Below, in pieces: positions 14,941 through 55,860 of a DNA stretch of 64,000 bases. The notes beneath the pieces are model-generated. The model was not told where the DNA came from. It searched no databases and saw only the letters and a program-made list of their open reading frames with translations. The DNA comes from Schmidtea polychroa (Eukaryota): positions 21,516,001 through 21,580,000 of the forward strand of contig CM097885.1 of the NCBI GenBank assembly GCA_044892525.1. The letters run 5' to 3'. How positions within the stretch are numbered: position 1 is the stretch's first letter; every line of letters begins with the position of its first letter. The translations under genes and the position numbers were made by a program.

Positions 14941-15821
14941 TACTAGGAAAGCAAAAAATCAATTATTGATTTTTTCCCCATATCTAGATTTGGAGTCAAT
15001 TCTTTTGCCCAATAAAAACGTTCCTAACTGAAAATCTATATTTAGCAACACCCCCCCCCCCAGAGAAACCTTAAGGAAAAATTCAAGACGGGGCTATGAC
15101 AATCAAGAGTTTCCAGGAGATGGTGAGGATGACTCCGGCGAACCATGCAATTGAATAAATAAGCCATAATTCGCAGAGATTTACCTACATACAGAATACA
15201 AATATTCCCGAAAAATTTCCAATTTTCGGCGAGGGACAAATTGCGGGTCCAAATCAAATATTGGGCATGAAATGTCATTCCCTGGGAAGAACTATGGGAA
15301 GACTACTCCAAGCTAATATATTCCCCTTACTCGATCGAGGTTCCTAATGTTATCGCCTAAAAATTAAGGAAGTAAAAAAATCAAATAAATTACTTGCATG
15401 TAGAGCAAACCACTCATAACGAGCACAACCGAAGGAAAGGTAAGCAGACGAAGAGCTTAGTTCGTTGCTAGTACCTGTCGCCCCAGCGTGCCCGAATTTA
15501 GTGGCCTAAAAATGACGATCTAAAAAAATTCACATTTTATTAACATATAAATTAAAATTTATAAATAGTAATTAAAATTGCCACTCGGTGGTAAGCAGGA
15601 TTTTGAATGGAAATGATTGATTTAAACAAACGAATTTTGACGAAATTTTTTTTTTGTGTTTGTTTTGATAAAGTAGGAAATCTTATTCCACTGCTCCTAA
15701 GCTTATAGATGTTAGTCTTAAAATAAAATATTTTTTTAAAAGGGAAAAAGGGTCAACAAAATCTTGTGGTTGACGTCGTATCTCAATCAGCATAGAGGGG
15801 CTTGATTATTATTTTGTAGAA

Positions 15822-16187
15822 ATGTCCTACTCTGACAGCGATAGCCACGAAGAAGCCGACCGACAGATGCTTACCAGACTCCGTACACGGTACATATGGC
15901 ACCGTATCCATGATTGGAATCGGGGTTTGGACCTCGACAACTTTGGCCCAGTAATCAGGAGTGGGCCGGAGCCGGACGCTCCGGCGTGGGTAAAAACAGA
16001 GCCCACAAACGATTTTTTGCAAGAGGCCCGCGACCGAGCGGCCATCGAGGTAGAAGCAGCTCAGATGCGACTCAAGAAGATCGAGCTACAAATCCAAGCA
16101 GAAAAAGAGGGAAAAACCGTGGAGGACCTAGAAGAGGCCGAGGCAACCCCGCGGAAGAGGGGAAGGCCTCGCAAGCGACTGAACTGA
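15822..16187 (+). CDS. LTR-encoded 121-aa protein with a C-terminal AT-hook
   Basis: GC-richer ORF within the AT-rich LTR, ending PRKRGRPRKR (RGRP AT-hook core) after a short coiled coil; preceded by ttttgtag. Confidence 0.7.
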   Translation: MSYSDSDSHEEADRQMLTRLRTRYIWHRIHDWNRGLDLDNFGPVIRSGPEPDAPAWVKTEPTNDFLQEARDRAAIEVEAAQMRLKKIELQIQAEKEGKTVEDLEEAEATPRKRGRPRKRLN

Positions 16188-16396
16188 CTCGTCGTCAAAA
16201 TTTTGTTTTTGCAAATTAACATTCAGTTGCGATTTTATTAAACTTTGATTTTAGTGATAATTATTTCAGTCCTTTTAATAAATCATCTTGTGTATTGCGT
16301 GCTTAACATCCGAAACTATGTTTATTTATAATATTGATTTTATTTTATAATTGAATGAATAGTATGCTGCAAGAATATAATCGTTGAATTTATCTA

Positions 16397-16867
16397 GTGT
16401 TCAGACTATTGGAAAATCTGCGAAGAGATAGGGCAGAAGCTCAAAAACAGTCCGAGGAGCTCCGCATACGAGTAGACAAGCTCAAGGGACGGTGCCGGGA
16501 ACTAGAAAGCACCTGGTTTAGTCCCGAGGATATGAAAAAGAAGGTGGCGCAGGTCCTTCAACTGCAGTCTCAAGCCGCGCAGGATCAGATGGAGATCCGG
16601 GCACTGAAGCTCCAGCTCCGCGCGCTAGAAACCGAGCGAAATGAACAAGTAGTTCACGGAGCCGCCATAAGCCAAATCCGGCCGTTGACCGTGGAACTAG
16701 CAGCAATATACCCCCCGGCCGCGAAAGAGAAACCCAAAAGAAAGCGGTTAGGCCGAAATATTCGGGAAAAATTGAAGAAAGCTAGACTGGCCGAATACGA
16801 GCGACAAGCAAATTCGTCACTAGCAGCTGCGACGGAATTGGCCAGTCCTACCAATAAGCCTGTTTGA
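16397..16867 (+). CDS. LTR-encoded coiled-coil protein with a basic NLS-like patch (start uncertain)
   Basis: Heptad-rich helix and KPKRKRLGR; opens at an acceptor-like tctag and has no early ATG. Confidence 0.6.
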   Translation: MFRLLENLRRDRAEAQKQSEELRIRVDKLKGRCRELESTWFSPEDMKKKVAQVLQLQSQAAQDQMEIRALKLQLRALETERNEQVVHGAAISQIRPLTVELAAIYPPAAKEKPKRKRLGRNIREKLKKARLAEYERQANSSLAAATELASPTNKPV

Positions 16868-17272
16868 ACTTATATTCGGTTTTAGGCGTTTGTAGTATTT
16901 TTATGTATTGTGGTAGTCTTCAAATAATATGTTCCTTGTTAACATACTGCACGTTTTGTAGGGATAAAATAATGACTAGTACAGTTTATGATTGTCTGGG
17001 AAATGAGAGTTTGTGCATAAGATTGGGAAAACAATTTTGATAAAGGGACCTGAGAAATCGGACACACACCTCCTATCGGTAGTCCGTGAACCCACGGAGT
17101 ACTCGACAACTATAATGCTTTGATGCGCTCACTTTTTGCGAGTACTCAACCCTTGGTACAGTACCAACGTTGATCACTCAACGGGTACCAAGCGGAAAAA
17201 CAATGTTGTATTTTGGGTTACGCTGGTAACAGCACTCAATCATTCAACCACCAGTAACCCACCATACAAATT

Positions 17273-17290
17273 TGGGGGCTCAGCCGGGAT
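17273..17290 (+). promoter_or_regulatory. Primer-binding site complementary to the tRNA-Pro 3' end
   Basis: TGGGGGCTCAGCCGGGAT matches 16/18 of the classical tRNA-Pro PBS TGGGGGCTCGTCCGGGAT; it lies 8 nt downstream of the 5' LTR. Confidence 0.9.
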
Positions 17291-17989
17291 CTTGAAAATT
17301 TAATTGGTGAAAGAACCCGAGAATAGATATAATAGAGAGAGTAAAAGCGGATATAAAGTGATATGCATTCAAGACCGAGCAAGTTGTTTTCCCAAGCGCT
17401 TAAACTTAGTATATGGATATGCGAATATGATAAAATGTATGTAGAATGTCTAAATGAGTGATGGAAGTTTTAAAGTATGACGACATATGAATGTATTGAA
17501 AGTGGGTATGAGAATGCTGTACGAATAACTTAGTAATAGAATGAATGAGGATAAACGAAAATTAAAACGAAAACAAATTATAATAAAATTGTAGATAGCA
17601 ACGATTAATAAAATGTAAATATAAGGAAATAATAAAAATTTAAAAATAGGGAAAAGGGGGGATAGCACGCTAATAAAGATAGAACAAATAAACAATGAAA
17701 TTAAACTTAATCAGAAAACGTGTAAAATATGGCGATAAGGAATGGGATATGGGTTATATATAATTAAAACGATTGTAATAAAATCACAAGATCATGAAAG
17801 AAATGTGCGCGGAATAGAGCATTAAACAGAGGGAGACGGGGTTGTTAAGGGTAATAAGTAGAATGTAAAGGTTTATCGAAGCACTAATAAAATAAAGTAT
17901 TCTGGATATTAGGGGGAAAAACGATAAAGGGGGAAAAATGACGCGGAATATTAATAAAAAGAGAACCTTAATTAATAAATCTTACTTAG

Positions 17990-18472
17990 ATGGAATCAAC
18001 CGGCTACATTACAAAGAGACTCGGAAAATTCGTAGATTTAACACACAATTCGTTACAACGGCTAAATCGCAAAGCGGACCAGTTAATAAAAATCCAAGAT
18101 GAGATGAGCTTGAATCCAAGACCGCAAGCTGAGGAAATATGTATAATGATGAAAATAGCGACACCTAATGCAGAATTGACCACTAAAAGAGTTTATCAAC
18201 TTCAAAATTTACGATTAGATAATGCCAAATTTAACATCAAATGGCAGGAGATAATGATAAAAATGGAAACGATCGAGGAAGAAATTAAAGAAGCAATCGA
18301 ACATCAAGTTAAAGATTTTAGAAAATGCTTCATATGCAGAACCAATGAAATACGAGTAATGACGATTCCATGTGGTCATTTATGCTACTGCGAGAATTGC
18401 GCAGAGAAAATTAAACGATGCAACGTATGCGATACGAATGTTAGAGAGAAAATTGTAATATACCTCCCATAA
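17990..18472 (+). CDS. Coiled-coil plus C-terminal IAP-type C3HC4 RING protein (putative E3 ligase)
   Basis: CFIC...PCGHLCYCENC...CNVC at the C-terminus. Confidence 0.88.
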   Translation: MESTGYITKRLGKFVDLTHNSLQRLNRKADQLIKIQDEMSLNPRPQAEEICIMMKIATPNAELTTKRVYQLQNLRLDNAKFNIKWQEIMIKMETIEEEIKEAIEHQVKDFRKCFICRTNEIRVMTIPCGHLCYCENCAEKIKRCNVCDTNVREKIVIYLP

Positions 18473-19199: not shown

Positions 19200-19760
19200 A
19201 CAAAAACCCGGATGCCACACCGAGTATTGGGCGCACTTTTTTGAGTTGCTAGCGGGACTTGATACAAAAACCCGGAAGGGTAGCGAGCGAGAGAGACCCA
19301 GTTACCTACACCGAGTATCAAGGAGCCCAGTGAAACGGTTGTGAGATGCGAGTCAACCGGTAAAGGACTCATACTCAACAGGCAACCAAGATTGGACCAG
19401 TTGTGAGGCGGGAGACCGAGAGTCAACTGCATACCCAATTTCCTTTTAGCTTCACTAGTCGGGAGATCTGGTTCATCACTTTTGAGAATCACGATCAAGG
19501 CGATTAGGCATTTCCGTGTTTTTTAAATCCTGATAGATAGGATGTTTTTCTTCGTGATTATTGCTAGCAGGGGTCGGTACAAAACCCGGATGCCCACACC
19601 GAGTACCGATAGGCCCAGTGAAACGGCGATGAGATTAGAGTTACCGGTATTAGACTCTTTTCAATAAGCGGCCAAGAATTGAGCCAGTTGTGAGGCCTCA
19701 GCAGATTAAGAGTTGGAGTAGGAGGAGCCTCGAATTTTTGATTAGCCCGAAAGTCAACTG
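19200..19760 (+). repeat. Diverged direct duplication in the non-coding leader
   Basis: tacaaaa(a)cccggatgcc(c)acaccgagta and gcccagtgaaacgg...accggta...gactc occur at ~19200-19430 and again at ~19578-19760. Confidence 0.7.
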
Positions 19761-19879
19761 TCAACTCAATTTAATCGCGGTAGGGACGATAGTAGGTGTT
19801 AAAACCGAAGGCGTCTGGGGGTTGAAGAAACCTCATTTAGGGCATTTGAAACCGGTCAGGGACCGAAGACCGCGAATAC

Positions 19880-20190
19880 GGCGTAATGGTGTAAAAGCCC
19901 AGGCGTCTAGGAGTCGTAAAAGACTTCAATTTTGATTAAACCGGCCGGAAGCCGATGCCGACGCGGAGGTCTAACAAACCAAAGCGTTGATGGGTAATAG
20001 TAGAGTATATGGCGTAATGGTGTAAAAGCCCAGGCGTCTAGGAGTCGTAAAAGACTTCAATTTTGATTAAACCGGCCGGAAGCCGATGCCGACGCGGAGG
20101 TCTAACAAACCAAAGCGTTGATGGGTAATAGTAGATTATATGGCGTAATGGTGTAAAAGCCCAGGCGTCTAGGAGTCGTAAAAGACTTCA
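19880..20190 (+). repeat. 131-bp tandem repeat, ~2.4 near-perfect copies
   Basis: ggcgtaatggtgtaaaagcccaggcgtctagg starts at 19880, 20011 and 20142. Confidence 0.92.
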
Positions 20191-21281
20191 TGAGATTAAA
20201 ATGAGTTGATTAAACCGGCCAAGGAGCCGATGGTAATTGAGTGAAATGATTTAAATGAAAATAAAGGAGTTGAACAAACCGGCCAGAGAGCCGATGGTAA
20301 ATAAAGGTGGATGTAGAGGTCGCGCGAACCAAAGCATCAATGATTAACTATGAAATTGATTAAACTGAAATAGATTAAGTGCGATAAATATGTAATGAGT
20401 AGAGGAGAATTATGATAAAGCGCCGGCGCAAGCGAAAATTAAACCAGTTTTTGGATGGGGAAAAGCGAACGAATAGATAGTAGTTGAATTATTGAATTTT
20501 ATTTATTAATGATATGTTTATTTTGATATTTATGTGATTAATATTATATTTCTATGATAATAATAAAAGGGATAGATAATTGATACGACTATATAGATAA
20601 TTGATACGAGTTATAGATAATTTAAAATTAACTTAAAATCAAAATGGGGCGAATAGCGAGAAGTGTAGAAAAGCTAGAAAATTTGAAGCGAAGGGACAGT
20701 AAAATAAAGGGAAAAAGGAAAGTAAATGAAGGGTTTAATAAAGAGAATTTATGATATGTACTAGAGGTGTTAATTATTTTAGAATAAAGCAAACAATTCA
20801 GAAAGAAATCAAAGAAATCAAGAAAGCAATAGAAATCAAGAGATATAGAGAAATCAATTAGAAGCGAAGAATCAAGGAAATTAATAAAACCAAATCCAAG
20901 AAGAGTTAGAGAATCGTAAAGATTAAAGCGAGAAAAATACTTAGAAAACATCGAGCTCGATTGACAAAGTAGAAAATTTATCAAAGGATATTAAAAGGAG
21001 GAAAAATTGATAGCATAGCTAACCGAACGAGGCGAAAAAGTAAAGGAAACCTCAGTTTATTGGAAAAGGAAGAGATACAAAAGGCCAAGACCAACAGAAA
21101 ACTACACAGGAAGCCAGCATCAGTAGAAACAGTATTTGAATCAGACAGTTTAACAAACGAATTTGAGAACAGCGACGATCTTAAACGAACCGAACTAGAT
21201 CCGATAAGTGACATTGAATCATCAGACGAGGAAGGAAATAGTTCAGAGTCAACCAATATAACAATTTTGTGTCAAGAAATA

Positions 21282-24200
21282 ATGACAGACGGAATTCCAA
21301 ATGTAACAGGGCTAACGGACCCACCGGAAACAAGTAATGTGCACGTCAACATTGGAGAATTCAGAGAGAAATTTCGAGGAGAGCCATTCGATGGAAATAT
21401 AAACCAGCTGGAAACGTTTATAAAGGAATTCGAAGTATACATTACGATATGTCACTGGCCAGACATAGTCGTACGAGAACGAATACCCCTATATCTAAAG
21501 GGAAGCGCCCAAGATGTATACTTGGAGGCGAAATGTGATGCAACTAAGTTGAGAACGTGGAAAGAGATCAAAGAATTTTTAATAAAAACATTCGGTACCG
21601 AAAAAGAGGGAAATCGAAAAATGTTAGACTTTCTGCATCGAAAGCAGAAATATAACGAATCCAACGCACTGTACGCATGCGAATTGAGACGACTAGCACG
21701 AGAAGCCTTCGATTCAAATCAACCAGTTCCGGAAGACAAAATAATAGCCGTATTCGTAGATGGCATGAAACGAGAGGATATACGAGCAACCTTGGGATGC
21801 CGAGCACCAGAGACGCTGGAAGAAGCACTAAAAATCGCTAACAAATGTGAAACCTACTTAACACCAATACAAGTAGCAGCAATGACAGCAGCTCCAGCAG
21901 CTCCAGCGGCAACAGCAACAACCACAAACAACCAAGTCAATAATGCAAATCCAGTAATGAATCAATTCATCCCAGGATCGCAACAGTTGTTCAAAACTCC
22001 ACAAACAAGAAACCAAAACAATGGAGGTAATATTCAAAATTTTACTAATAATTTCAGGAACAACGACATCAACAATCGAACGTGCAACATATGCCAACGA
22101 CCAGGGCATTGGAGCAATGAATGTTATAAAGCAAGGATGTGTCAAAAGTGTGGGAGAAGAGGCCACACGGAAAATGTCTGCAGAGGACCCATGATGTCTA
22201 TGAGCAGAGGAGGAACCAGAACCTGCTACAATTGTAATCAGCCTGGACACATGGCAAGAGAATGCACGATGAGAACCAAACCAAATCAACCAGGATCAAA
22301 CAATCCAGTTCAGAACACACAAATCAACCTCATGCAGGAAATCGAACAATTAAAAGATATGATCCTGCGAATACCGACTAATAACCAACAACAACGAATC
22401 AACATGATGCAGAGCACCGAGGAAATCCGGAACCAACCAAGTAAGCAACAACAAGATCAGCAACGAGTCGAATGGCAAAGATTACAAAACGAGGAAGCCA
22501 GAGAAATTCAAGAAAGATGGAAACAACGGGAAGCGAATCCCGGAAGAATAAATATGATGAGATTAACAAATAAAGAGGAATCGCACACTGCGGAGCAGTG
22601 TGTTAACAACGACGGGAGTGAACCGATAATAAACAAGGAGATAAAAACGACAAAAGAAAATGAGATCGATCCACGAACAGAATTGAGCAGTGAAGAGAAA
22701 ATACAATTGATTAAAGAATTTACCAAAGAGGAGAAAGAAAGGAGACAAAAGAGAGATGAGAGTAAAGACGAACCAAAAAGCAATGAGATAGTTACAAAAA
22801 ATCGAATTCAGAGGGTACTACTACAAAAAATCGAAGACAGAATCAAAAACGAAAACCCTACATTAACTGAGGAACAAATAAAAGAAAAAGTGAAAGAGCA
22901 TTGGTTCAGGAAGAATGAGTGGTTTGAAAAGAAGGAACCACATACCAAAGCTAAAATAAACATGCTGAGACAAATGCGGAGCGATCAGACGGATCAGGAA
23001 GATGAGAAAAGTGAGGTGAGCAGCCTGGGAGGCGAATTATTTCAGTCAAGTGAGGAAAATAACGAACCGAAAACACCTCCAAACAGTGAAACACCTCAAA
23101 GTAGTGAGGAGAGTGAAAATGATGACATGAAATCAATGATAGAAAAAGATGAAGAAGAGATATTCGAGGAAATTCTCGACACAGTAACAGAAATAGAGCG
23201 AAATGAGAGCTACATCAACGAGTTAACATACAGAAAATGCTTAAAACTTATAACTCAAGTATACCAGTGTGAAGGAGGTATAATAACGGCAGCATGGAAA
23301 GATTTAGCAACAAAATATAAAGAGAAACTAAAGGAAGCAGGCCCAGATCAATATCAAGTAAGCATTCAACACCCCGAGATTCAGATACAGACTATCGAAT
23401 TAAAAGGAACAAATACCGATGAACTGTACAACTGGGTACAGGAAAAAATGGGAACGAGCCATAAAAATAAACAATTATATGTCGATGGTTACAAAGTTAA
23501 AATAGGCATACATTTGGTAGATGCGATGATATGGCCAAACGAAACTAACATCTTAACCTTAGAGAAAACCAGGGATGACGACTCGGTAGCAGAGATGTTC
23601 AAGAAAATCCAACAAGTGTTTAACAATGAAGTAGAACCAGAATTGGAAAAGATCGAACGAAAAATAATGAAAGAAAATCAAATAATCTTAGTCAAACAAG
23701 CTATCGATCAGACAAGGAAATACATTAATAGATTGAGAGAAAGATGGCCACAACTAATGAAACAATTTGTTAAAGACGTACGAGACACGGAAATTATGAG
23801 ATTCGAAGACAAACGAGCGACAGAATTGATATCTAAATACGGAGAATACGAGAGAACCAAATGCGAGCATGAAACGATAAAAATAAAGGTGAAGTTGCCA
23901 AATGAAGAGAAACAAATAATAGAAGTTAATCCCGATTGCCAAGTTGACGAGTTAGTGCAAATCATAGATCAAGAGATCATCCAAAAAGCTCGAGAAAATA
24001 GTGAGGATGGAATGATCGAAGATGTGATAATAATGTACAACCGGCACATGCTAGAAAGAGGAGACCGAACTGTAATTTACGAACTAGGAATCTGGGAAAA
24101 TGGAGCCGTCATCAATATAATCGCGATGGATGAACCATCTGGTGGGCATAAAAACGCCACGAAAACCGAGCAACAAATTAAAAGATTCCAATGGGGAATG

Positions 24201-27200
24201 AGGGCAAAGATGGATCGAATAATAGATATTTATAACCATTGGCTAAAGGATGATAAACTAAAACTAGCAGCCTTCAATGACGAAGATTGCAAACTGATAC
24301 CATGGAAAAAAGTGTGGATCGAAAGTGAAGCTCGATGGGATTGGGAGCAGCAAAAGTTGGAACCAAATTGGATAGATAATATACCCGAAGAGATCGCAGC
24401 AGCATGGGTAAGAGAGAAACCGATCGATACTTACCAGGATATATTACCACAAGAATTCCAAAATGAATTACCATCAGGAGAAGATGAGGAGATACGAGAA
24501 CCGGTAAGGTTAGCACCATTCACGTGGAAAATTGAGAATTGGATGGAAAAGATAAAATCAGCAAAGGAAGAGAAAATCACACGATTAGTAAGTCCACCGT
24601 TCTACTCAGGATTAGGTGAGTACAAGATGAAATTGCGAATATACCCGAACGGAGACGGGATAGGTAAAGGAAGTTATGTGTCGGCATTCTTCGTCATCTG
24701 CAAAGGAAATTATGACGACAAGGTACCATGGCCGTTTAACAGAAAAGTGACGATAGCAATCGAACCATTGAAAGATAGCCTTAACAGGCATAAAGAAACA
24801 TTGAAACCAGATCCAAGGAGCGCCTGCTATCAACGACCAACAACATCAGAAAATATCGCTTCTGGGACACCTAAATTAATACGTCTAAGTTACATTGAGA
24901 ATGAGCAGTCAAAATTTGTGAAAAACAATGCTATCCAGATCAGAGTAGAAGTTGAAACAGAACAAGAAATGAACCAACGACTGAACATACCAGAAAATCA
25001 ACCGAGAATCTGTATGATGAGGAGAAGAGTGTCTGATTCAGGACATCTACCAATAGACGCCGACGCAGATGAGGAAGAAGCAGCAACATTGTTGGAAGCA
25101 CAAAAATGTAAGGAGTTGATGGAGATATTACAAAACGGGGCGAAAAATCGTCGACGAGCGGTGGTAGAACTAGCAAAATGGATAGCCGAATCATGCAAAA
25201 GGATTCAAAATCTACGAAAGATCGTTAAAGCGATTGAAGAATATCGACGGGTATACGTATGGTACCCTGAACAATTTGGTGAAATCATCCGGAAATGGAA
25301 ACAACAAGAGTGGGCCGAAAACTCACCTGAGAAATATCAATTAAAAATATTCATGCCAGATTGTGAACCAATGGAAAAGGAATTCTATACGACAGCTAAA
25401 GTCAGAGAAGTTAAAAAGAGAATACCTTATGAACTCCCATTCCACTTACAACACGAGGGACGATCATTAGACGACGATATTGAGATTGGTGTGACACCAC
25501 TCCAAGGAGAAATTGTGAACAGATTAACGGTGAGTAAAATTGCAGGTAGAGAGCTAAGGAGAAGAGAGATAAAGCAAAAATCATCCACCCAACAGCCAGG
25601 AAGTTTGGACACACCAGAAGTTCCAAATGCGGTTAGTGAAGTGACGATCGAAACAACGGGAGAAGACGAAATACTGGATGAATTACAAGAGATAGTAGAA
25701 GCAGGCGAGATTATGAGAGCATCGCAATCAGGAGATCTATTTATCGACGAAGGTGAACTGACAACTGATGATTTAGATGGATTTGTATGCGCGCAGAGAC
25801 AACCAGTGGAAACGACGGAAGCCGAGACGGATTTAGATAACGTGGAAAGAGATGCCAATAAAGATGTAACCACAACCGATGAATGGAGCAACTGGAGAGT
25901 AGATCCAGGAGCGACCACGTCAAAAGATACAACTTACAATCCGCCAAAACGGAAAGAAACCGGAACAGCTATGGATCGACGAACAAGAGGAAGACCAAAA
26001 ACAGATAAAGCAGAGATCGAACCAAAATCCAAAGTTCAGGCGCAAATGGAACAGGTAAAAACTAAAATGGATAAACTAAGTGCATTAGTAAAACAAGTTA
26101 AAGTGAAGACAAGCGTCCGAGAACAAGGGACACGATGGATAAATGACCTATTAGCCAACATGTTAGCATTAGCAAATCCAGATGTGAAAAGAGTAATGAG
26201 GAAGGATAATATCCCGACCGAAGCCAAACAATTATGGGCAGTATTGAAACCGATAATAATGAAAATCATGGATAATAAAATTCGATTAACGTTAAAAGAT
26301 CCCGTGGAACTCAGATTAATTGTGGAACATCTATTAAGCAGATCAGAGGACCAAAATCGATTTTTAGTGGGATTAGCATATTTAGTATATAACGTTATCG
26401 GTCAATATAAAAAACGAATGCCAAAATATAACGCAACGGGTTACGAATTCACAGTAACAGAAATAATTAAACGATCAATAGAACCATATATACTTGAACA
26501 AGGGGGATGGAGAAGCTTCATCGAATCAACTGGGAAGAAAGATCAAACGGAAATGATGCAAGCAAAGTTACGCGATTTGCTAACTGAATTCGAAGGAACA
26601 ATCAATATAAACGACCCAAGAGCAAGTCGAAAGGGAATGAATGCCATAATAACCACGATATTGATATGGATGATGTGTATCAAAGGAACGGAGTCATTTG
26701 CAGTATACGACTGCGACAACATAAAAATCCATGAGAAATATTCATTAAAGGATACGGAAGACTGTAAAGCGGCAAACCCAAGAAAATTACAAACAGTCAT
26801 GGCATCAGTCTCGTACAACGTATATCAAGAAGCAGATTTCATCAAAACTATGGTCCAAGAGTGTACGGTAACCAGAAAGATATTCGCACATCACTGCGGT
26901 TCATCCTCACACTCAACAATCATAGAACCAGGATTGGAATCGACAGTAATATTACTATCAAGAGAGGAATGCGAGGAAGGGTTCCGATCAGGGAGAATCC
27001 ACTTAAGGCAAGGGATTGAAATCGCTGCAGAACCAGGAAAAATAAAAACGACTCGCGTATATACGGCGGGCAGAATCACTAAAGGAGACGGAACATGTGA
27101 GACAGGAACATACACCTTGAACGGACAACTGGTTAGTGGAGTGGTCGTAATAGAAAGTTACGAAGCTAAATTGGAAAAGTATCAAGGCTACTTTGACCCT

Positions 27201-30200: not shown

Positions 30201-33200
30201 AAAGAGGAAGATAGAGAAAAGACAGCCTTTACCATCGGAAAAGATTTATATCAGTTTAAAAAGATGCCATTTGGATTAACAAACGCACCTGCTTCGTTTC
30301 AGAGATGTATGAACTTTGTGACACACGGGATCAAACAATGTATGGTGTATATCGATGATCTGTTAATTTATTCAGGTACTTTCGAGCAACACTTAATCGA
30401 CATCAGAAACGTATTCATAAGACTGAAACAATGGAAGCTGAAATTGAAACCGTCAAAATGCGACTGGGCAAAGGAGAGAGTCACATTTTTAGGACACATT
30501 GTGTCGGCAAAAGGAAAAGAACCAGATCCGAGAAACGTTGAGAAAATAAAGAATTGTCCGATACCAAAAACCGTGACTCAGGTACAAGAATTTCTGGGAT
30601 TATGCGGATACTACCGCAAGTTTATCAAAAATTATGCAACTATCGCAAAACCAATTCAAGAACTAACAAAAAAAGATACTCCATTTTTGTGGGAAAGAGA
30701 ACAGCAAATAGCATTCGAATCGTTAAGAGATAAACTAATAGCCTCACCTATTCTAATACACCCAGATTTTAAAAAGCCTTTTCTACTAGCAACCGATGCC
30801 AGTGGATATGCATCAGGAGCTGTGCTAGGACAATGGGATGAGGAGAAACGAGAAAGAGTCATCGGATATTATAGCAAGACGTTCAAAAAGCACGAAAAGA
30901 ATTACTCGGTCACAGAAAGAGAAGCCTTAGCAATAATTCAGGCGATAAAACATTTCAAATATTTATTGTGGGGACACGAGATAATTATTACTACAGACCA
31001 TCAACCTCTAGTTTGGTTGGGCCAACACAAAGAAGCATCTAGCCGATTGATGAGATGGGCAATGCAGTTACAAGAATATTCCCCATACATCAAATTCAAG
31101 TCAGGAAAAGCAAACGCAAATGCAGACTGCATGTCGAGATTTGTATTTGAAGAACTCATGGATCATGACGTCAGACGAATATGCCTGATAATCGCGGAAG
31201 ATATCGATTTTACCAATCTAAAGAACGAACAAAAGGAAGACAATGAATTAAAACTAATAATTGAGTTCCTGGAAAAAAACGATATGAAAATATTCAACAA
31301 CGATGATCGACTAAAAGAACACATGGAGAAAAATCGTCACAGATATACGATCGAGAAAGGATGGCTATTGGTAATGGATGGCGACAAACGATTGATGTGT
31401 CTACCAGAAAGTAGACGGAAAGCAATTATGATTCAATACCACGATGGTAAATTGGGCGGACATATGTCAGCCAAGAAAACAGAAGCAAGGCTCAAACAGA
31501 AATATTACTGGCCAAATATGAGCGATGACGTGAAAGAATGGATAAAGAACTGCCTGATATGCGCAACCAGAAAAACAACGGGCAGTAAACTAAAGCCACC
31601 ATTGAAACCAATGCCGATACCGCCAGAACCGATGACAATGATTGCAATGGATGTAGTTGGACCACTACCAGAGACTAACAGTGGAAATGTGTATATATTG
31701 GTAATAACTGATTATCTGACTAAGTTCCCTGAAGCATTTGCGATGCCAGACCAGAAAGCACGAACGGTTGCAAGGATATTAGTGGAAGAGATCTGCTGCA
31801 GATATGGAACACCAAAACAAATCTTAACTGACCAAGGAACTAATTTCATGAGCGAGATAATAAATGAAGTGACAAATTATTTTAGAATTGCCAAATTGAG
31901 AACCTCACCATACCACCCGCAAACGAATGGTCAGACAGAAAGATTTAACGGCATACTAATAGACATGATGTCCAATTACGTGAGTAAACATCAAAAGGAC
32001 TGGGATGAATATATTAAGTTGTGTCTAATGGCTTATCGAATGTCAATACACTCAGCAACGAAAATGAGTCCGTTTAAACTCATGTATGGAAGGGAATGCA
32101 ACATGCCGATGGATCTCGAATACCAACCGCCAATCTCACAATATATGGAGATAGATGATTATGTGACAAAGTTCAAGGAGAGAATGCAAGAAATATGGAA
32201 AACCGCAGGGATGAACATCCGATTCAACCAAGAGAGTTATAAGGAATTACATGATAAAAAGAAGAACGTGCAAAACCATCAATTTAAAATCGGAGATTGG
32301 GTTATTATAGAAACACCCGAATTAATCCCAGGAACAGCAAAGAAATTACAACGTAATGGCAGAGGGCCATATGAAATCATCTATGTAAACGAGAACAACG
32401 CTAGAGTGAAGTTGGTTAACAATCCACTAATTAGACCCATTTATGTGAATACATGTCGATGCAAAGCAGTAGCGAAAACTGCCACTAAAGACCCAGAAAC
32501 AAGAAGGATAATCACGAGATCACAAACAAATGCCACAACGGAACCAGAAGTAAGCGGTAGATTAACTAGATCACAGACAAGACGAATATTCATGTTGAGA
32601 GGAGAAACAAGCAGCAGCGCCCATAAAGGAACTGAAGCAGAAAGCGAAGCTGACGCAATGGCAAGGAGCCAAGCAACATGGAATATGACAATAAAAATAG
32701 CACGAGAAATTGTACCAGAATGGGCCGATATAACCAATAAATACCAAGTATTGGGCAAACTAATGTTAGTAGCAGAAAGATATGCGAAAGGACGAAGATA
32801 TGCCGAAGGATTACAAATACCGACTCAAATATATGAACTAATCCGGAGATTACCAATCATGTTCCTAACAAGTGATTTGAGTAATAACTGGCCAATCCAT
32901 CATGCAGTGAAAGCAGGACAAGAAAAACGAGCTTTAGAGATTATACGAATAATGGAAAACTGCAAACAATCAACAAACGTCAAAAACAGTAAAGGAAAAA
33001 CTCCACTGATGAAAGCCATAGCAATAGGCGCGTCAAGAGATGTACTCAGAGAATTATTAAGAACGGGATCCACGCTGAAAGAAAAAGACAACAAACAACG
33101 AACCGTATTACGTTATGCCGTCAGGTCAAAAAGACCTAGTATAGTGAACTTTATCACAGGAAATGCAACAACCGAAGAAGCCGAGGTGTTGGGACAGAGC

Positions 33201-35348: not shown

Positions 35349-35496
35349 CGAGAGGAGGAGTTGTTGTAAATAATGTATAAATGAAATGATAAAAGTAGTG
35401 ATAATAGTAGTGGTATGTACAAAATAAAAGTAGTAAATTAAAACAATATGTAGAAAAATCAAAAACAAGTATGATGACCATGTATTATAAATAGGA

Positions 35497-35952
35497 ATGA
35501 ACCAGAGAAACGAAGAGCAAGAACACCCAAATGGGATACCACATATTGTTGAAGTAAGAGAACAGCCGCTTATGAATGTACATCCAGTAGACATGATGGA
35601 AATGAACGTGCCAAACCAGCCGAGTCAGCCAACAGGATCCATGTGGAGGGCACAGTGTGAATTAATGACCCAATTGACAAATCAGACTCAAGAGCACTGG
35701 GTACGAAACCAAACGGCGTTGATAGAGAGTATTAATAGAAATGCAATATATATTACAAAAATAGAGGAACAACACCAAATAATCGCGCAACTAGAGTATA
35801 ATAACAATCAGTTAATAAGCCAAATCAGATGGCAAGCGGAAGAAATTAGAAGGTTGCATGAAAATCGACAACATGATGATATTACCAGTTTAGTCGAGTG
35901 GATGACCGGGTTACCAGGAACAGGGGAACCGGACTCGACGGTAGATGTGTAG
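35497..35952 (+). CDS. Accessory 151-aa coiled-coil protein, unknown function
   Basis: Intact ORF with the element's codon bias and cassette-type flanking motifs. Confidence 0.7.
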   Translation: MNQRNEEQEHPNGIPHIVEVREQPLMNVHPVDMMEMNVPNQPSQPTGSMWRAQCELMTQLTNQTQEHWVRNQTALIESINRNAIYITKIEEQHQIIAQLEYNNNQLISQIRWQAEEIRRLHENRQHDDITSLVEWMTGLPGTGEPDSTVDV

Positions 35953-36041
35953 GAGAAAAAGGAGTGAAATGTAAATAATCCTGTAAATAAATAGAGTTAT
36001 AATCAAGTAGAAATCCCAAGATTAAAAATCATCATTGTAGA

Positions 36042-37466
36042 ATGCAAAACAAAGCAGAGGAAAACCGGAGAGAAGCAGAGGAACAAAAGATTAACTATGA
36101 GTTGATGAGAAAATACCAAGCCGAGCCGGACGAGTTCGAAGAGAGATTATTATGTGCCGATACAGCATGTAGAAGATTATTAATTGGAGCAAGTCAAACT
36201 CGATGCGGGTGTAGATTGTGCCGAGGGTGTGATATAAGATTAGCCAGACTAAAGCGAGAAACTTGTCCAGGATGTGGAGAAGCATTTAAGTTGGTTCCCA
36301 CTGGTACGATACCGGATAGAGCAATGAACCGAGAAATCAGAGAAGTGAAAATAAGATGCACCCAAAGGTCATGCGAATGGACAGGCCGAGTAAAGGAGTT
36401 AAGAGCCCATACAGACGTATGCGAATATCTAGAATCGGAATGCGAAGCATGCACGGTAAAGTTTTTACGAAAAGAGAAAACCAAACATAAAGGGGAATGC
36501 AAAGCGCGAACGGAAAAATGCGAATTTTGCGGAGAAACTGCTAATTGGAGAGAAATCGAAATGGAACATCGAAACGCAGTAGAAAGACGGATTTGCGACG
36601 AATATACAGGGAAATGCCCAAACGAGTGTGGAGAAATTAACAACGTCAGATTAAATGAACATTGGGAGATATGCACGAGAAAAGCAATAAAATGCCCAAT
36701 GGTGACATTCGACTGTAGAGCACAATTACCAGCAGAAGAAATGAAGAAGCATGTGGAGGAGAATACATTCGAGCACATGCAAAAGATGATGAGAGCAATA
36801 GAGTTAACAGCAAGAGCAATTGAAGACGTCAAAGACGAACTCAAATCACATAAAATCATGATAAAAGAAATGCTGAGCTCACAGGAAAGCTTCGAAAATA
36901 CGAGAGAAGCCGTAACACAAAGGATGTTGAAATTAGACGACAAATTAGTCGAAGTAACTAAATTACAAACCAAATGGACTACAAAGGAACTGACAACAGA
37001 GGAACTACCAATACTACCATACATGTGGAAAATCCAAGGAATAACGGAAATAATGGAGCAAGCAAAGCAAGGAATCCAGACAACGATAGTGAGCAAACCA
37101 TTCTACGCCAAGAAACATGGATACAAGATGAAATTGAGATGGTTTCCAAATGGTGAAGGAAAGTTTAAAGATCGGTGCATGTCCATATATATGCAAATTT
37201 GTAAAGGAGATTTTGACGACCTAATAGCATGGCCATTCCGACATCGATTAAAAATATCTCTCTTAGGAGCAAAAAAGACACATATAATGTGTTTTCGAGC
37301 ATCCAGTCCAGCAGGGAATAAACCGATTACAGAGGTTAATCCTGCGGTAGGAGTAGCAGAGTTTATGCAGCTATACCAATTTAACGAAGGGTCCTACATA
37401 GAAAAGGACACTATATTCTTCCTAATCGAACTAGATGAGGAAGGACCAACAATAGAAATACGATAG
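36042..37466 (+). CDS. Full-length TRAF-like protein (RING, zinc fingers, coiled coil, MATH), intronless
   Basis: C..C..CGCRLC..C..CPGC RING; C...CEWTG....L..H...C TRAF zinc fingers; YMWKI...SKPFY...GYKMKLRWFPNGEG...KGDFDDLIAWPF. Confidence 0.95.
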   Translation: MQNKAEENRREAEEQKINYELMRKYQAEPDEFEERLLCADTACRRLLIGASQTRCGCRLCRGCDIRLARLKRETCPGCGEAFKLVPTGTIPDRAMNREIREVKIRCTQRSCEWTGRVKELRAHTDVCEYLESECEACTVKFLRKEKTKHKGECKARTEKCEFCGETANWREIEMEHRNAVERRICDEYTGKCPNECGEINNVRLNEHWEICTRKAIKCPMVTFDCRAQLPAEEMKKHVEENTFEHMQKMMRAIELTARAIEDVKDELKSHKIMIKEMLSSQESFENTREAVTQRMLKLDDKLVEVTKLQTKWTTKELTTEELPILPYMWKIQGITEIMEQAKQGIQTTIVSKPFYAKKHGYKMKLRWFPNGEGKFKDRCMSIYMQICKGDFDDLIAWPFRHRLKISLLGAKKTHIMCFRASSPAGNKPITEVNPAVGVAEFMQLYQFNEGSYIEKDTIFFLIELDEEGPTIEIR

Positions 37467-37606
37467 ACGGATAGAAGGGAACTGTAAATATTTTGTAAAA
37501 ACGATGTAAAGTAAATATAAAGTTATTGTATACAGTAAAGTAACGTGCCAAAACCATAAAAATTAGAAAAAGAAAATGTAAAAAGAAATGATGAAATTTA
37601 TTATAG

Positions 37607-38785
37607 ATGATTAATCAAGAGAGACCGAATATCCGAAAGAAAACGATCACAATGAGAGAGGAAGAGGACAATATGTCACCTAGAGAAAGAGTGAAGGATG
37701 CGGAAGTCAGCAAAACAAAACCAAGTAGTTACGCATATTATCGGAGAATGGGAAACGATTATAATTGGGTACACGAAAATTTGAAACTGGGAAATAATGA
37801 ACAATTCAGATGTGAGAACCAGAGATATCTGTCATTTGAACATCAGACCATTTTTACCAAGGAACAAAGCCGAGCGCTAGCACGCGACGGATTTTTCTTC
37901 TCCGGAAAACCAGAGATACCCGATCAAGTAACATGTCGTTTCTGTAAAGGGAAATTAGCAGAATGGAAAAAAGGAGAACACCCAAAGGAGGAACATCGTA
38001 GACGATTCCCAACTTGTCTATTCGTACTGGGATTTGATGTACACAACAAACCGGAAATCAAATACGAAGCCTTGGAGAAATTGAAAACTGAAGACGAAAA
38101 AGGAGGGAAAATGAGCATCGCGATAACCAGAATCGTTGATGAGTATGTTCCAACTTGTGAAGGGGAATTCCTCACGCAAATAGCAGATAATAGAATGAAA
38201 ACGTTCGGAGATGATACGAGAGGACCTGAATTAGCAATAAGAGGGTTCTACCTAACAGAAAATCAAATACTAAAGTGTGAAAGATGCGAAAGCCAACAGA
38301 GATTACCGGAAGAAGGCATACCAGAAATTAGACATCAAGCATGGTGCCTATATCACAACGAACAAGAAACCGAATATCCGGAAGTACTAGTAACAGAGGA
38401 AGAGGTTGACGAAGTGGTAGACAAACCCAACATGTGCAGAGCGTTGAAAGCAGCCGGAATAGGCACGACAAGGGCAAAGAACATGATTAGAGAGAAACTA
38501 CAGAAAAATGTACATATACCAACAACAACGTACGATATGATCAGAGCGATAACCCAGTATAGAGAAAAACCTGAAACAAAAATAAAAGAAGAATCAATGG
38601 TCAAAACAGCTATCTTACGAGATATCAAATGTACTATGTGTTGGGAGAGGAGTGTAGAAGTTATTCATATGCCATGCGGACATTTGATCGCATGTGCCAC
38701 ATGTAGTAGAAAAGTAAAGGAATGTCCGATGTGCAGACAGAGGATTGCGCAGCGAATCAAAGGATTCCGCTACGCCGATCAATAA
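37607..38785 (+). CDS. Inhibitor of apoptosis (BIR, degenerate BIR, C-terminal RING), intronless
   Basis: RYLSF...LARDGFFF...DQVTCRFC...W..GEHP..EH....PTC; second RMKTF..LAIRGFY..C..C..H...C; CTMC...PCGHLIACATC...CPMCR. Confidence 0.95.
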   Translation: MINQERPNIRKKTITMREEEDNMSPRERVKDAEVSKTKPSSYAYYRRMGNDYNWVHENLKLGNNEQFRCENQRYLSFEHQTIFTKEQSRALARDGFFFSGKPEIPDQVTCRFCKGKLAEWKKGEHPKEEHRRRFPTCLFVLGFDVHNKPEIKYEALEKLKTEDEKGGKMSIAITRIVDEYVPTCEGEFLTQIADNRMKTFGDDTRGPELAIRGFYLTENQILKCERCESQQRLPEEGIPEIRHQAWCLYHNEQETEYPEVLVTEEEVDEVVDKPNMCRALKAAGIGTTRAKNMIREKLQKNVHIPTTTYDMIRAITQYREKPETKIKEESMVKTAILRDIKCTMCWERSVEVIHMPCGHLIACATCSRKVKECPMCRQRIAQRIKGFRYADQ

Positions 38786-38867
38786 CAAAAATTAAAATTC
38801 CGTGTATAAAGTGTAGATAATAAATGTATGAAATAATAGTGGTAGTAATAGTGTAATTATTTAGACA

Positions 38868-40466
38868 ATGAATAAAGAATCACAAACCTATGTGGAAACC
38901 GAGATGCAACAACTCGAACAGTACAAATCCATCATACAAACATACGAAGCAGAAAGAGTAAAGAGAGAAATAGAAATGTACAAAACCATGTATGAGAAAA
39001 AGCAACAAGAATTAGAAGCGGAGAAGGCGGAAGCACTAGCAACAAAGGAGGAGTGGATGAAACAGGTAGAGGAATTAACCGAGGATGTGAGAAATACCTC
39101 AACATACCAAGAATTGGAGGAAGAGCTCTCGAATTTACGAACTCAGCGGATTATGGAGATAGTTGGGTTATGCGGAGAGATAATAATGCAGAAGGCACAA
39201 ATTAGGGAAGCAAAGGAGCAATACGAGGAGGAACAGCGTAAAACGGAACGAATAAAACTACAAGCGCAACAATGGAAACTAAAGTACGAAACCCTCCAGA
39301 CAAGGCAGAATGATAGTCACGAACATCAAATACGGAATTACAAGGCCGAACTAGAAGAAGTAAAGGGCAAATGCGCAATGATGAAAGAAAAATGGGAAAG
39401 ATGCAAAAAGACCCTAAACGAAGTCAGAGGGCAAGGGAGGAGAACACCGCATAGAGAACCAATTGTTAGAGATAACGTATTAGAGCGAATTAACACACAA
39501 ATAAAGATACAAGCCCAGAAATGGAAGTATAAATACCGAGGAAGTCAAACTCAAGTGCTATATTGGAAAATCAGTAGCAAGGAACAACTGCGATTACGAA
39601 AAGCAGACCAAGAATTTTACGAAACAAGAGCTGCACAGCGAGAAGAAGAGGAAGTAGAGTGGAGAAAACGACAGCAGAAAACTGAGGAAACCGAAAAGTG
39701 TCTCAAGCATCAAGCCCGAAAATGGAAAAAGAATTGGAAAGAGACCAAAGAGGAGTTAAGACAGTTACCAATAAAACTGATGGAAAGAGACGAATTTAAA
39801 ATATGGGAAACGATAGAAAACCAAAAAGATGAGATCAGCCGATTGAGTAGAGAACATAGAATCAAGACGCGGATCAGCGACGGTAGACAGAGAATCATAA
39901 AGAAACAGACTCGAGAAATAAGAAGGTATGAATTCCAGGAAAAGAGATGGGAACAACAATTGACAGACCAAGATCGACAGATCCGACAATTACAAACTGA
40001 AGTGGAAGAAGCCAATCAAGAGATGAACGGATATAAAGGTATGTACACCCAAAGGGATGTGAATTGGAAGCACCAGATTGAGCTTAATGCGAAATATAGA
40101 GAGGAGTGCGACAAGACAATTCAACAAACCAAACAGGAAACCGAGATAATAAAACGATGCTTCGAAGAAAATGAAGCAAATTTGAGAGCGGAAATTGAGA
40201 AACTAAAAACGCTCGAAAGAACCCAACGATTGGAAGAGGAATTAAACGAAATGATAGAAAACGAAGGTAGATTAACGTTTTTATTGGATGAGGAAATAAA
40301 CATCTCAACGGAACTACGAGAGGAAATAGATCGGTTAAGGAGACAACCACCAATATTATTAATGCCACTCTACCCGTTCCCGTTGCAAGTGCCACAGCCT
40401 GCCGAAGTCACCACAGATGAAGGCTTCGATGAAAATAACGAACAAAATAACGCAACATGGATTTAG
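38868..40466 (+). CDS. Accessory 532-aa long coiled-coil protein
   Basis: E/K/Q/R heptads throughout, a repeated QA.KWK motif and a Pro-rich C-terminus. Confidence 0.8.
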   Translation: MNKESQTYVETEMQQLEQYKSIIQTYEAERVKREIEMYKTMYEKKQQELEAEKAEALATKEEWMKQVEELTEDVRNTSTYQELEEELSNLRTQRIMEIVGLCGEIIMQKAQIREAKEQYEEEQRKTERIKLQAQQWKLKYETLQTRQNDSHEHQIRNYKAELEEVKGKCAMMKEKWERCKKTLNEVRGQGRRTPHREPIVRDNVLERINTQIKIQAQKWKYKYRGSQTQVLYWKISSKEQLRLRKADQEFYETRAAQREEEEVEWRKRQQKTEETEKCLKHQARKWKKNWKETKEELRQLPIKLMERDEFKIWETIENQKDEISRLSREHRIKTRISDGRQRIIKKQTREIRRYEFQEKRWEQQLTDQDRQIRQLQTEVEEANQEMNGYKGMYTQRDVNWKHQIELNAKYREECDKTIQQTKQETEIIKRCFEENEANLRAEIEKLKTLERTQRLEEELNEMIENEGRLTFLLDEEINISTELREEIDRLRRQPPILLMPLYPFPLQVPQPAEVTTDEGFDENNEQNNATWI

Positions 40467-40498
40467 TCGAAGGGAGATGTTGCCTGTAAATAAGAATG

Positions 40499-40544
<46 letters not shown>
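40499..40544 (+). repeat. 46-nt poly(A) tract between accessory ORFs
   Basis: Pure A run starting 33 nt after the stop at 40466. Confidence 0.9.
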
Positions 40545-40546
<2 letters not shown>

Positions 40547-40629
40547 AAAACCAAATAAAAATTACAAAACCAAAAAATTCAGAATAAAAAGAAGACAAAA
40601 GGAAATATGATATGTATATTTTTGTAGAT

Positions 40630-41397
40630 ATGAATTATTTAAAAGAAAGAGAATCAACGAGTAACGAAGGAAAGTCAAACGACCAACCTGAACAAAACCA
40701 GGATATGATACCAATCAAACAAGAACCGATGAAATATTATAGCAATAAATGGAGAGTCAGCAAGAAGTTGTTCAAATTAAAGATTGCAAATCAAAATGTA
40801 GAGATTACGAGATTGAGGCAGCATATTGTTCAATCAAGACGATTAATAAACACTGTCAAACAAGAAATTTTGAGGGAAATAAAGGAATCGAAACGAAAAG
40901 AGACAGAAAATAAAAACCTGAGACAAGAGATAGTAGAGTTGAGAGCTCAGGCAGTAATCGAAGATTATTGGAAATCAGAAACAAGGAAGTTGAAAAAGAT
41001 TGTGAATATCGACCAAGTCTATATCGAGCAGTTAGAAGCACAATATGCTTATGCAAAAACAAGAGTGCGAGAAAGTAAAAAAGTCGAGAAGAGAAATGTA
41101 AAACTCAAGGAAGAGATCAAGGAACAAAGAGAGGAAACAGAAAAACAATGGAAGTTGAAAGAAAATTACCGGAGAATCTTAAATCAAAAACGACGAAGCA
41201 TGCAAGCATTGCAGACGGCAATAACCATCAAGCAGAGAAAATGGAAAAGTAAAGAGAAGCAATTACAAGAAATACCAGAATTAAAGAGACAGTTGATAGC
41301 AACGCAACTCGAAGTAATAAGAATGAACGAGTTGAGCAAAAGACGAGCACCTGAACCTCCCGTAAAATTAAGGGATGAGGTCGGTGGCTCCCAATAA
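40630..41397 (+). CDS. Accessory coiled-coil protein (probable start 40630), probable paralogue of 38868-40466
   Basis: ORF 40612-41397; the second ATG follows ttttgtag; KW..IANQNVEITRL resembles KW..IENQKDEISRL. Confidence 0.75.
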   Translation: MNYLKERESTSNEGKSNDQPEQNQDMIPIKQEPMKYYSNKWRVSKKLFKLKIANQNVEITRLRQHIVQSRRLINTVKQEILREIKESKRKETENKNLRQEIVELRAQAVIEDYWKSETRKLKKIVNIDQVYIEQLEAQYAYAKTRVRESKKVEKRNVKLKEEIKEQREETEKQWKLKENYRRILNQKRRSMQALQTAITIKQRKWKSKEKQLQEIPELKRQLIATQLEVIRMNELSKRRAPEPPVKLRDEVGGSQ

Positions 41398-41473
41398 ATG
41401 AGACAAAATAACCGTGTAAATAAATTGTAAATAAAGCCAAGTAATTATTATTAACATATATGTATATGTAAAG

Positions 41474-42460
41474 ATGAGAAGCCTAATCGTGATGATGATT
41501 ATAATGACAATGCCAAAAATCCTGCAAGCAGAAGAATCAATGATCAGATGCCAGAAAGAATACCCATATCGCAGAGAAGATAGTACATGTAGTAGCTTTA
41601 AATCGATCTGCGAAAAACCCAATGAGGAATGCGAACAAATCAAGTTACAATGTTCGCAATGTCCACAAACAACTGAAAGTTCGACGGAAGTGCAAATGGC
41701 TCAGACAATAAAAACAATGTTAGAACAAGAAATGAAAGTTATCAGAACCCAGATAGCAACATTAGCCAAACAATGTCAAAGTCAGAAATCAAAGAGAGAA
41801 TCCCAAACAGATCCAGCCGCAATGAGAATGATGGTAATAATATTAGAGGAAATAAAACAACAGGTAACAGCAACCGCCTATGGACGTTCAAGCAATTGCG
41901 AAACAGTAGTAAAATCTTTGGAGGAAATGAAAGGAAAAATAACTTCCATCATCAAAGAGGAACCCAGCATTAAAAATGAGGTAACGAAAACCTTGAAAGA
42001 AATGACAAGGGAAATCCTAACTACCATAAACAAAAACCCAACGAACTCCGAGAAGATGATTAAAACCCTTGAGGCAATAAAGAAAGTTGTCACCTCAGAA
42101 GAAAACAAATTCAATAAGCCCGAAAAATCAGAAACGGCGGATACAACCCAATTAAAAGAAATTATGAACAAACCCAAAGTAATAGAACCGAGAGAGTCTG
42201 AATCCCTCACAATATTGATCCTATTAGCGGCGAGCCTAATGATAAACATCACCGTACTGAGCCTGATTGCACTCAAACCCAATTCCAGTAAAGAAAGAAA
42301 CAAAACCCTCAAACTAAAGGAACAATCAAGAAGTATTCGTATCCCAATGGAAGAACAGCTAGTCCAAACAACGAACCAACCAAGCTACTTCAAATCTTCC
42401 CCAAACATTGAAACCAGAGCCGTCATCGAGACGAGATCCCGAACAACCGAATTTTATTAA
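41474..42460 (+). CDS. Accessory type I membrane protein (signal peptide, 6-Cys head, helical stalk, TM)
   Basis: N-terminal MRSLIVMMIIMTMPKILQA; Cys cluster; three K[ST]L.E[MI] helical repeats; TM LTILILLAASLMINITVLSLIAL. Confidence 0.8.
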   Translation: MRSLIVMMIIMTMPKILQAEESMIRCQKEYPYRREDSTCSSFKSICEKPNEECEQIKLQCSQCPQTTESSTEVQMAQTIKTMLEQEMKVIRTQIATLAKQCQSQKSKRESQTDPAAMRMMVIILEEIKQQVTATAYGRSSNCETVVKSLEEMKGKITSIIKEEPSIKNEVTKTLKEMTREILTTINKNPTNSEKMIKTLEAIKKVVTSEENKFNKPEKSETADTTQLKEIMNKPKVIEPRESESLTILILLAASLMINITVLSLIALKPNSSKERNKTLKLKEQSRSIRIPMEEQLVQTTNQPSYFKSSPNIETRAVIETRSRTTEFY

Positions 42461-46493: not shown

Positions 46494-46702
46494 CTCGTCG
46501 TCAAAATTTTGTTTTTGCAAATTAACATTCAGTTGCGATTTTATTAAACTTTGATTTTAGTGATAATTATTTCAGTCCTTTTAATAAATCATCTTGTGTA
46601 TTGCGTGCTTAACATCCGAAACTATGTTTATTTATAATATTGATTTTATTTTATAATTGAATGAATAGTATGCTGCAAGAATATAATCGTTGAATTTATC
46701 TA

Positions 46703-54885: not shown

Positions 54886-55860
<975 letters not shown>

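Follow-up and report, generated by a model that had tools for sequence, protein, structure and literature searches.

A predicted LTR leader and conserved splice acceptors before the ORFs of a Burro-type retrotransposon in Schmidtea polychroa

How could genes that lie 20-28 kb inside a retrotransposon be expressed? The literature that we found on Burro elements leaves this unaddressed, and the question is raised by a 64,000-nt stretch of the Schmidtea polychroa genome (assembly GCA_044892525.1, contig CM097885.1, positions 21,516,001 to 21,580,000), here called the window, in which all positions are counted. A long terminal repeat (LTR) element at 12510-47570, 35,061 bp in total, encloses all ten open reading frames (ORFs) to which an earlier note on this DNA had drawn attention: one polyprotein of 4688 aa and nine smaller ORFs, including RING, TRAF-like and IAP-like ones (Table 1). 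The reading that we favour, with a probability of roughly 0.65 on the sequence comparisons below, is that a single LTR leader of about 45 nt, ending at 13237, would be cis-spliced to alternative acceptors and serve all ORFs, giving about ten proteins.

By its sequence, this is a Burro-type Ty3/Gypsy element, a known planarian kind. TG...CA LTRs, a target-site duplication and a primer-binding site are present, as in Ty3/Gypsy LTR retrotransposons, and Pfam places protease, reverse transcriptase (RT), RNase H and integrase in this order at polyprotein residues 2603, 2916, 3137 and 3375-3546. The Burro assignment was made because the length, the polyprotein domain set and the BIR domain match the description of Burro/GYPSM1, elements of more than 30 kb with LTRs of several kilobases, a huge polyprotein, a BIR domain and accessory ORFs (PMC6431247; papers cited by such numbers were available in part, and statements refer to those parts). 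For one stretch of the element, the genome (G000) contains at least 299 candidate copies, the best 40 at 99-100% identity.

The earlier note had placed a splice-acceptor-like AG directly before every ORF. All ten AG contexts, together with the two GTAAG sites that it named as donors, are present at the coordinates it gave, and the six 3' spacers, which it put at ~75-165 nt, measure 148, 89, 140, 82, 163 (to ATG 40630) and 76 nt; ATG 40612, upstream of 40630, reads GTG in older copies. Nine of the ten ORFs have a conserved acceptor at the place given in the note; that of the tenth, the polyprotein, probably lies further upstream. Site 16397 has no ATG after it (the first in-frame ATG is 16532), and 21276 lies inside a frame open from 20973. 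A bare AG within 3 nt of an ATG is common (34% of 666 internal ATGs) and weak evidence alone. All ten sites, however, follow T-rich sequence although the strand is A-rich, are among the top 7% of the 2365 AGs and are preceded by 13-32 nt free of AG. A combined rule, that a T-rich AG precede the ATG by 0-9 nt, is satisfied by 9/9 ATG-started ORFs; the background is 6.3% for all 730 ATGs and 13.5% for the 163 non-coding ones. As this rule was fixed after viewing the window sites, it was tested on a second family, family B: five copies in the same genome, forming two related groups and reached via the shared primer site. Family B has no DNA similarity to the window in the stretches tested, LTR included, and its accessory proteins are 25-33% identical. 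There, 35/35 starts satisfied the rule, against a background of 3.7-6.3%.

The acceptors are also conserved. Across 15 loci of the window's own family (family A), 84/84 aligned acceptor triplets were unchanged in older copies, compared with 573/609 other spacer AGs. A non-autonomous family with decayed accessory ORFs has lost the AG before RING in 3/4 copies; in the one copy examined, the AG was gone before the 151-aa ORF and a CAG was retained before the TRAF remnant. Each spacer contains 1-8 ATGs upstream of its acceptor, and scanning or reinitiation would therefore be hindered. Because the AGs are conserved, are lost where ORFs decay and include one at a precise GT-AG deletion (see below), their role as splice acceptors for about ten ORFs is well supported, and we consider them very probably functional. 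To this extent the proposal that splicing resolves one transcript into about ten mRNAs is borne out; an operon in the spliced-leader (SL) sense is disfavoured at 16397.

Neither donor proposed earlier survived comparison: at 15440 one variant has GC and four others lack a corresponding site, and at 15591 the +5 G is missing from 8/8 aligned copies. Conservation points instead to a donor at 13238 that had been missed, with a cis leader that would end at 13237. When the window was aligned with 20 LTR loci, GT and +5 G were found in 21/21 LTRs, while adjoining columns dropped to 4-10/20; six variants occur (GTAAGC, GTAAGT, GTGAGT, GTAGGT, GTAAGA and GTAAGG) and the flanks diverge. The donor sequence has 215 exact sites in the genome. 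We infer the position of the LTR start site from the TATA box, which in family B LTRs is followed 55-57 nt on by AG/GTAA (5/5), giving a predicted leader of 25-30 nt. A major donor after the start site and an acceptor before each ORF, the arrangement of complex retroviruses, are thus both found as conserved sites. Past the donor, these family B LTRs (L155, L159, L163, L167, L191) carry the predicted leader a second time in tandem, and this second copy, by eye, ends in AG without GT in 4/5. Further Gag-only or ORF-less elements with 1.5-1.7-kb LTRs (L171-L190) have the primer site in common and show a TTTTATGCC leader motif followed by TG/GTAAT.

ORF2 allows cis- and trans-splicing to be told apart. 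Its protein is conserved over 45 codons upstream of the first ATG, and in 8/8 rows, down to 39% identity, the homology sets in abruptly where TG follows a T-rich TAG or CAG. As the frame lacks one base and the predicted leader ends in A, cis-splicing would build the start codon as A/TG, the leader's final A completing it. Donor base -1 is A in the window and in 15/15 family A LTRs, and G in 4/5 non-autonomous LTRs without ORF2; in family B, where the ORF2 homologue brings an ATG of its own, it is G. The flatworm SLs on record all terminate in ATG (PMC12582326). This terminal ATG would be out of frame at 16397, and SL trans-splicing is therefore disfavoured for ORF2. On these frame comparisons, a cis leader for the LTR ORFs is quite likely. 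In ORF1, which retains its own stop, no conserved donor of the required phase was seen by eye. A 36-nt mini-intron before 16397 was rejected, its GT not being retained in L093.

For the polyprotein, sequence conservation indicates that the acceptor is probably 20782 and not 21276, whose T tract is lost in diverged copies; 21276 may still see secondary use. Between 20783 and 21281, 499 bases are free of ATG in 11/11 family A copies (8.4 expected, p 0.0002, base shuffle), and families B and C match this layout with a strong acceptor 419-666 nt upstream of the first ATG. The in-frame ATT at 21006 suggests a non-AUG start for Gag and the polyprotein. In all three families the Gag frame is open for 101-185 codons upstream of the first ATG, without an ATG (20973-21281 in the window), and a near-cognate codon in strong context stands ahead of the Gag ATG: ATT in families A and C, ACG in 4/5 B copies. 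Family B has a second T-rich AG 257-266 nt upstream of the Gag ATG. The non-autonomous family (L061-L065, L081-L085), ~70% identical, has Gag fused to the polyprotein C-terminus, without env and pol and with decayed accessory ORFs; it retains the donor, a 20782-type acceptor and two Pumilio-type motifs after the intact ORF.

One genomic copy (L206) probably preserves a splicing event. Its deletion covers exactly 35971-36040, without microhomology, and is the sole GT-AG-bounded case among 26 deletions of at least 25 nt listed from 59 loci. Read most simply, this sequence derives from an RNA in which the spliceosome acted in cis at acceptor 36040 before the RNA was copied to DNA. DNA copies without the acceptor G were searched at seven of the ten acceptors (15819, 16397, 35494, 36040, 37606, 38864 and 41473). 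No joined form was found at 15819, 16397, 35494 or 41473; 37606 gave a single point change, and 38864 two unrelated matches. A genome search for the leader followed by a base other than G gave 0/24 matches in an element leader. Beside the 215 unspliced LTRs, none turned up in which the leader is joined to ORF1 or ORF2, which fits early termination or lack of packaging of those mRNAs.

Four of 15 listed sequencing runs were mapped, as assembled contigs, on 35000-47570: X1, X2 and X3, whose RNA status was guessed and which are ~4-5% diverged from the window, and X8. These contigs gave nine joints, and in none was a donor of the 3' LTR linked to an acceptor. None of the 23 loose contig ends viewed, out of 145, lay at these AGs; short tips are lost from contigs. 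When proteins were searched for N-termini derived from transcripts, ORF2 gave none (one 40% relative was uninformative) and the 151-aa ORF one 95% match with the same start. Protein searches of metagenome and viral contigs gave no relatives, and ORF1 had no usable Atlas match.

The 3' spacers share a further feature. TGTAAATA occurs seven times in the six spacers, compared with 0.4 expected (0/2000 shuffles), and is absent from 18 kb of coding sequence. In 25 family B spacers the motif varies as TGTA[A/T/C]ATA, with 44 sense and 0 antisense occurrences. Lying on the sense strand in 3' untranslated sequence, these motifs agree with the Pumilio element consensus UGUAHAUA (PMC4995099), and from this agreement we infer Pumilio binding. 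Two other readings of these spacers were rejected, the second of them tentatively. TGTA as a CFIm poly(A) element was set aside, this element being reported absent in planarians (PMC5068929). The A46 tract at 40499 is probably not a poly(A) tail that was captured: it varies from ~8 to >50 nt among copies, more like slippage.

In the programme that we propose, the leader would be cis-spliced to the ten predicted acceptors in Table 1, and unspliced RNA would serve as the genome. Without the primer site, RNAs spliced beyond 17290 could not be reverse-transcribed. Each mRNA would end either in the 3' LTR or at a poly(A) site of its own, and the Pumilio-type motifs after stop codons would, judging from the motif only, place each mRNA under host 3'-UTR control. 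Several points weigh against a leader shared by all ORFs. To reach 41473 from the donor at 13238, splicing has to pass over nine acceptors in 28 kb. A leader-to-acceptor junction was not observed anywhere, in contigs that are assembled, are possibly DNA and have rare branches dropped; contigs run unbroken across 36040 (X1, X2), 38864 (X1, X2, X3) and 41473 (X1), in runs that may be DNA. The frame argument is limited to ORF2 and has no equivalent for the six 3' ORFs, and base -1 is A also in the LTR of L091, which has lost ORF2, and in L083. The L206 deletion is a single event with a local donor instead of the LTR donor, its 3' break fixed by the search. For some family B copies of four ORFs, the ATG after the AG was chosen despite an upstream in-frame ATG. 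Lastly, the genomic copies are mutually related and their counts overstate independence.

No 22-28-kb intron skipping many acceptors would be needed if the leader were cis-spliced to the nearby ORFs and the polyprotein, and the six 3' ORFs were resolved in the manner of a flatworm operon, with 3'-end cleavage behind each of them and host SL trans-splicing to the AG that follows. Planarians have SL trans-splicing (PMC10899757), the 76-163-nt spacers are within the flatworm operon criterion of at most 300 nt, and flatworm cis and trans splicing often use common acceptors (PMC12582326). AATAAA is found in 5/6 of the 3' spacers, though its count does not significantly exceed that in shuffled sequence (7 vs 5.6, p 0.31). 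Cis-splicing is strongly prevented at operon-resolving acceptors (PMC12582326), whereas acceptor 36040 would, from L206, have been used in cis at least once. For 3/6 of the 3' ORFs the AUG that ends an SL would lie in the wrong frame, and the AG-ATG spacings of family B, 0-6 nt, show no frame preference. Such a mixed route is unlikely in our estimate.

Alternatively, the spacers might contain promoters, with TGTAAATA as a Forkhead site, each ORF having its own capped start and the AG being incidental or part of the start context. GTAAATA fits what we take to be the Forkhead consensus, the accessory genes of foamy viruses use an internal promoter and BURRO1 RNA is tissue-enriched. The last two observations are from PMC3694450 and PMC8532177, respectively. 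We nevertheless regard spacer promoters as very improbable: the family B motif, strictly sense and never GTAAACA, fits an RNA element, and the TAG/CAG exchange, the missing ATG of ORF2 and the GT-AG deletion would all be unexplained. The L206 deletion is exactly the event expected of short spacer introns with a donor in TGTAAATA, whose removal would bring each stop nearer to the next ATG for reinitiation on a polycistronic mRNA. It is, however, one case only, with none at six other acceptors searched; the family B motif variants are poor donors, the ORF1-ORF2 spacer has no TGTAAATA-type motif, and a T at -1 would not build the ORF2 start. This makes spacer introns the least probable of the explanations considered.

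The preferred reading, one LTR leader cis-spliced throughout, resembles known viral systems. HIV-1 and the adenovirus major late unit join one leader to many alternative acceptors; HIV-1 keeps unspliced RNA as its genome, and the ORF blocks of adenovirus have their own poly(A) sites. The element differs in being Ty3/Gypsy, and no Rev-like export factor was identified. Foamy viruses likewise have a major donor inside the LTR soon after the start site, in both LTRs, and express an enzyme ORF from spliced RNA (PMC3694450). They differ in the internal promoter mentioned above, while the element would have about ten acceptors, two within the LTR, and its whole Gag-Env-Pol polyprotein would need splicing. 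Flatworm SL operons also consist of same-strand ORFs less than 300 nt apart with an acceptor just before each, but mostly comprise two genes and receive in trans a leader that ends in AUG (PMC12582326), whereas the element has its own conserved donor and an ORF2 for which the SL AUG is out of frame. With Burro/GYPSM1 the element shares Gag knuckles, MATH, an in-frame env between gag and protease, protease-RT-RNase H-integrase and ankyrin in one polyprotein; the reported polyprotein has 4873 aa, as against 4688 aa here from the first ATG, and the likeness is one of described features (PMC6431247). BCL2-like, SUMO-like and dUTPase-like motifs were not reported by Pfam at E 0.01; HHpred was used for some in PMC6431247.

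The available part of that account covers domains and holds nothing on splicing, a leader, a split start codon or 3'-UTR motifs (PMC6431247). While the element is known, its complex-retrovirus-like splicing programme is likely undescribed: literature on Burro splicing and accessory genes, spliced accessory ORFs in LTR elements and Pumilio elements in retrotransposons gave nothing describing such a programme, a search that covered neither the first publication on Burro nor its Repbase record, both of which could bear on novelty. It is conceivable, though we are rather doubtful, that Burro has the most elaborate retrotransposon splicing programme known, with one leader to ten acceptors over at most 28 kb, a split ORF2 start, a non-AUG Gag-Env-Pol and Pumilio control after every stop, kept across families ~30% identical in accessory proteins. 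The exact junction coordinates given here can be tested in existing planarian RNA-seq; BURRO1 RNA goes up under smedwi-2 RNAi (PMC8532177). If the reading is true, complex-retrovirus-style expression would have arisen independently in a Ty3/Gypsy element, and one of its start codons would be divided between two exons. Among the genes of Burro elements are apoptosis and immune-signalling ones (IAP, TRAF, RING), and the elements were proposed to be proviruses that meddle with host pathways (PMC6431247); some of the expanded planarian TRAF transcripts (PMC6109357) could then be element mRNAs and not host genes.

Table 1. Coordinates of the element's features in the window.
Feature	Position	Strand	Remarks
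5' LTR	12510..17264	+	4755 bp, TG...CA; 4-bp target-site duplication ATAG; single mismatch vs 3' LTR (17115)
TATA box (predicted promoter)	13161..13168	+	retained in all 16 LTR rows compared; TATATAAA in non-autonomous family
Predicted leader exon, ~45 nt, ends in A	13190..13237	+	start taken as TATA + ~30 nt
Predicted major splice donor GTAAGC	13238..13243	+	77 nt past TATA box
ORF1, 121 aa, C-terminal RGRP, no Pfam hit; acceptor TAG 15819	15817..16187	+	
AATAAA, candidate poly(A) signal between ORF1 and ORF2	16277..16282	+	AATAAA/AATAGA 120-171 nt before ORF2 acceptor in 7/7 LTR variants
ORF2; acceptor TAG 16397; conserved frame opens at AG/TG, no own ATG	16395..16867	+	YAG/TG in 8/8 rows, 39-98% aa identity
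Primer-binding site	17273..17290	+	8 nt past LTR; 1061 exact matches in genome
RING-finger ORF, 160 aa; acceptor TAG 17989	17987..18472	+	TTAG/ATG in 10/10 family A copies
Likely polyprotein-mRNA acceptor	20767..20782	+	invariant in 16/16 copies, down to 70% identity
ATT, strong start context, in frame, 92 codons before first ATG; candidate non-AUG start	21006..21008	+	ATT in 14/16 copies, ATG in 2/16
Polyprotein, 4688 aa from first ATG: Gag zinc knuckle, MATH, fusion glycoprotein (PF24664), protease, RT, RNase H, integrase, ankyrin	21282..35348	+	
Seven TGTAAATA motifs, Pumilio-element-like, in 3' spacers	35365, 35970, 35982, 37483, 40485, 41415, 41426 (35365..41433)	+	
151-aa ORF, no Pfam hit; acceptor TAG 35494	35492..35952	+	13/13 copies
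70-nt GT...AG segment precisely missing from one genomic copy (L206)	35971..36040	+	
TRAF-like ORF (zf-TRAF, MATH), 474 aa; acceptor TAG 36040	36038..37466	+	14/14 copies
IAP-like ORF (BIR, RING), 392 aa; acceptor TAG 37606	37604..38785	+	14/14 copies
Charged ORF, 532 aa, no Pfam hit; acceptor TAG 38864	38862..40466	+	15/15 copies
255-aa ORF from ATG 40630; acceptor TAG 40627	40625..41397	+	14/14 copies
328-aa ORF, hydrophobic N- and C-terminal stretches; acceptor AAG 41473	41471..42460	+	14/14 copies
3' LTR	42816..47570	+	second copies of leader, donor, ORF1, ORF2

The priming sites have features of their own. The primer-binding site is presumably tRNA-Pro-like. Searches for tRNA genes and Rfam families gave no match. 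The 8-nt gap between LTR and primer site (17265-17272) is the same in all families seen. Upstream of the 3' LTR a polypurine tract is absent, its place being occupied by a perfect hairpin plus GGGCCCCC (42776-42815), roughly complementary to the primer site. This arrangement was seen in 30/30 loci, which were themselves found via that motif, and the hairpin has 415 exact matches in the genome; plus-strand priming of the element may be unusual.

Other observations concern the LTRs, the leader region and the flanks. The RGRP end of ORF1 is what we take to be AT-hook-like. LTR middles in L081-L100 are highly mosaic, near-identical interiors occurring with LTR variants whose ORF1 and ORF2 proteins are as much as 40% different. 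Upstream of gag, the non-coding DNA at 19296-20190 holds two related blocks of ~115 nt and a 131-bp tandem of variable copy number, which are candidate packaging elements. Outside the element, the flanks contain broken ORFs at 1959-2561 and 55215-55774 (minus strand) that presumably resemble hAT-type transposase C-termini.

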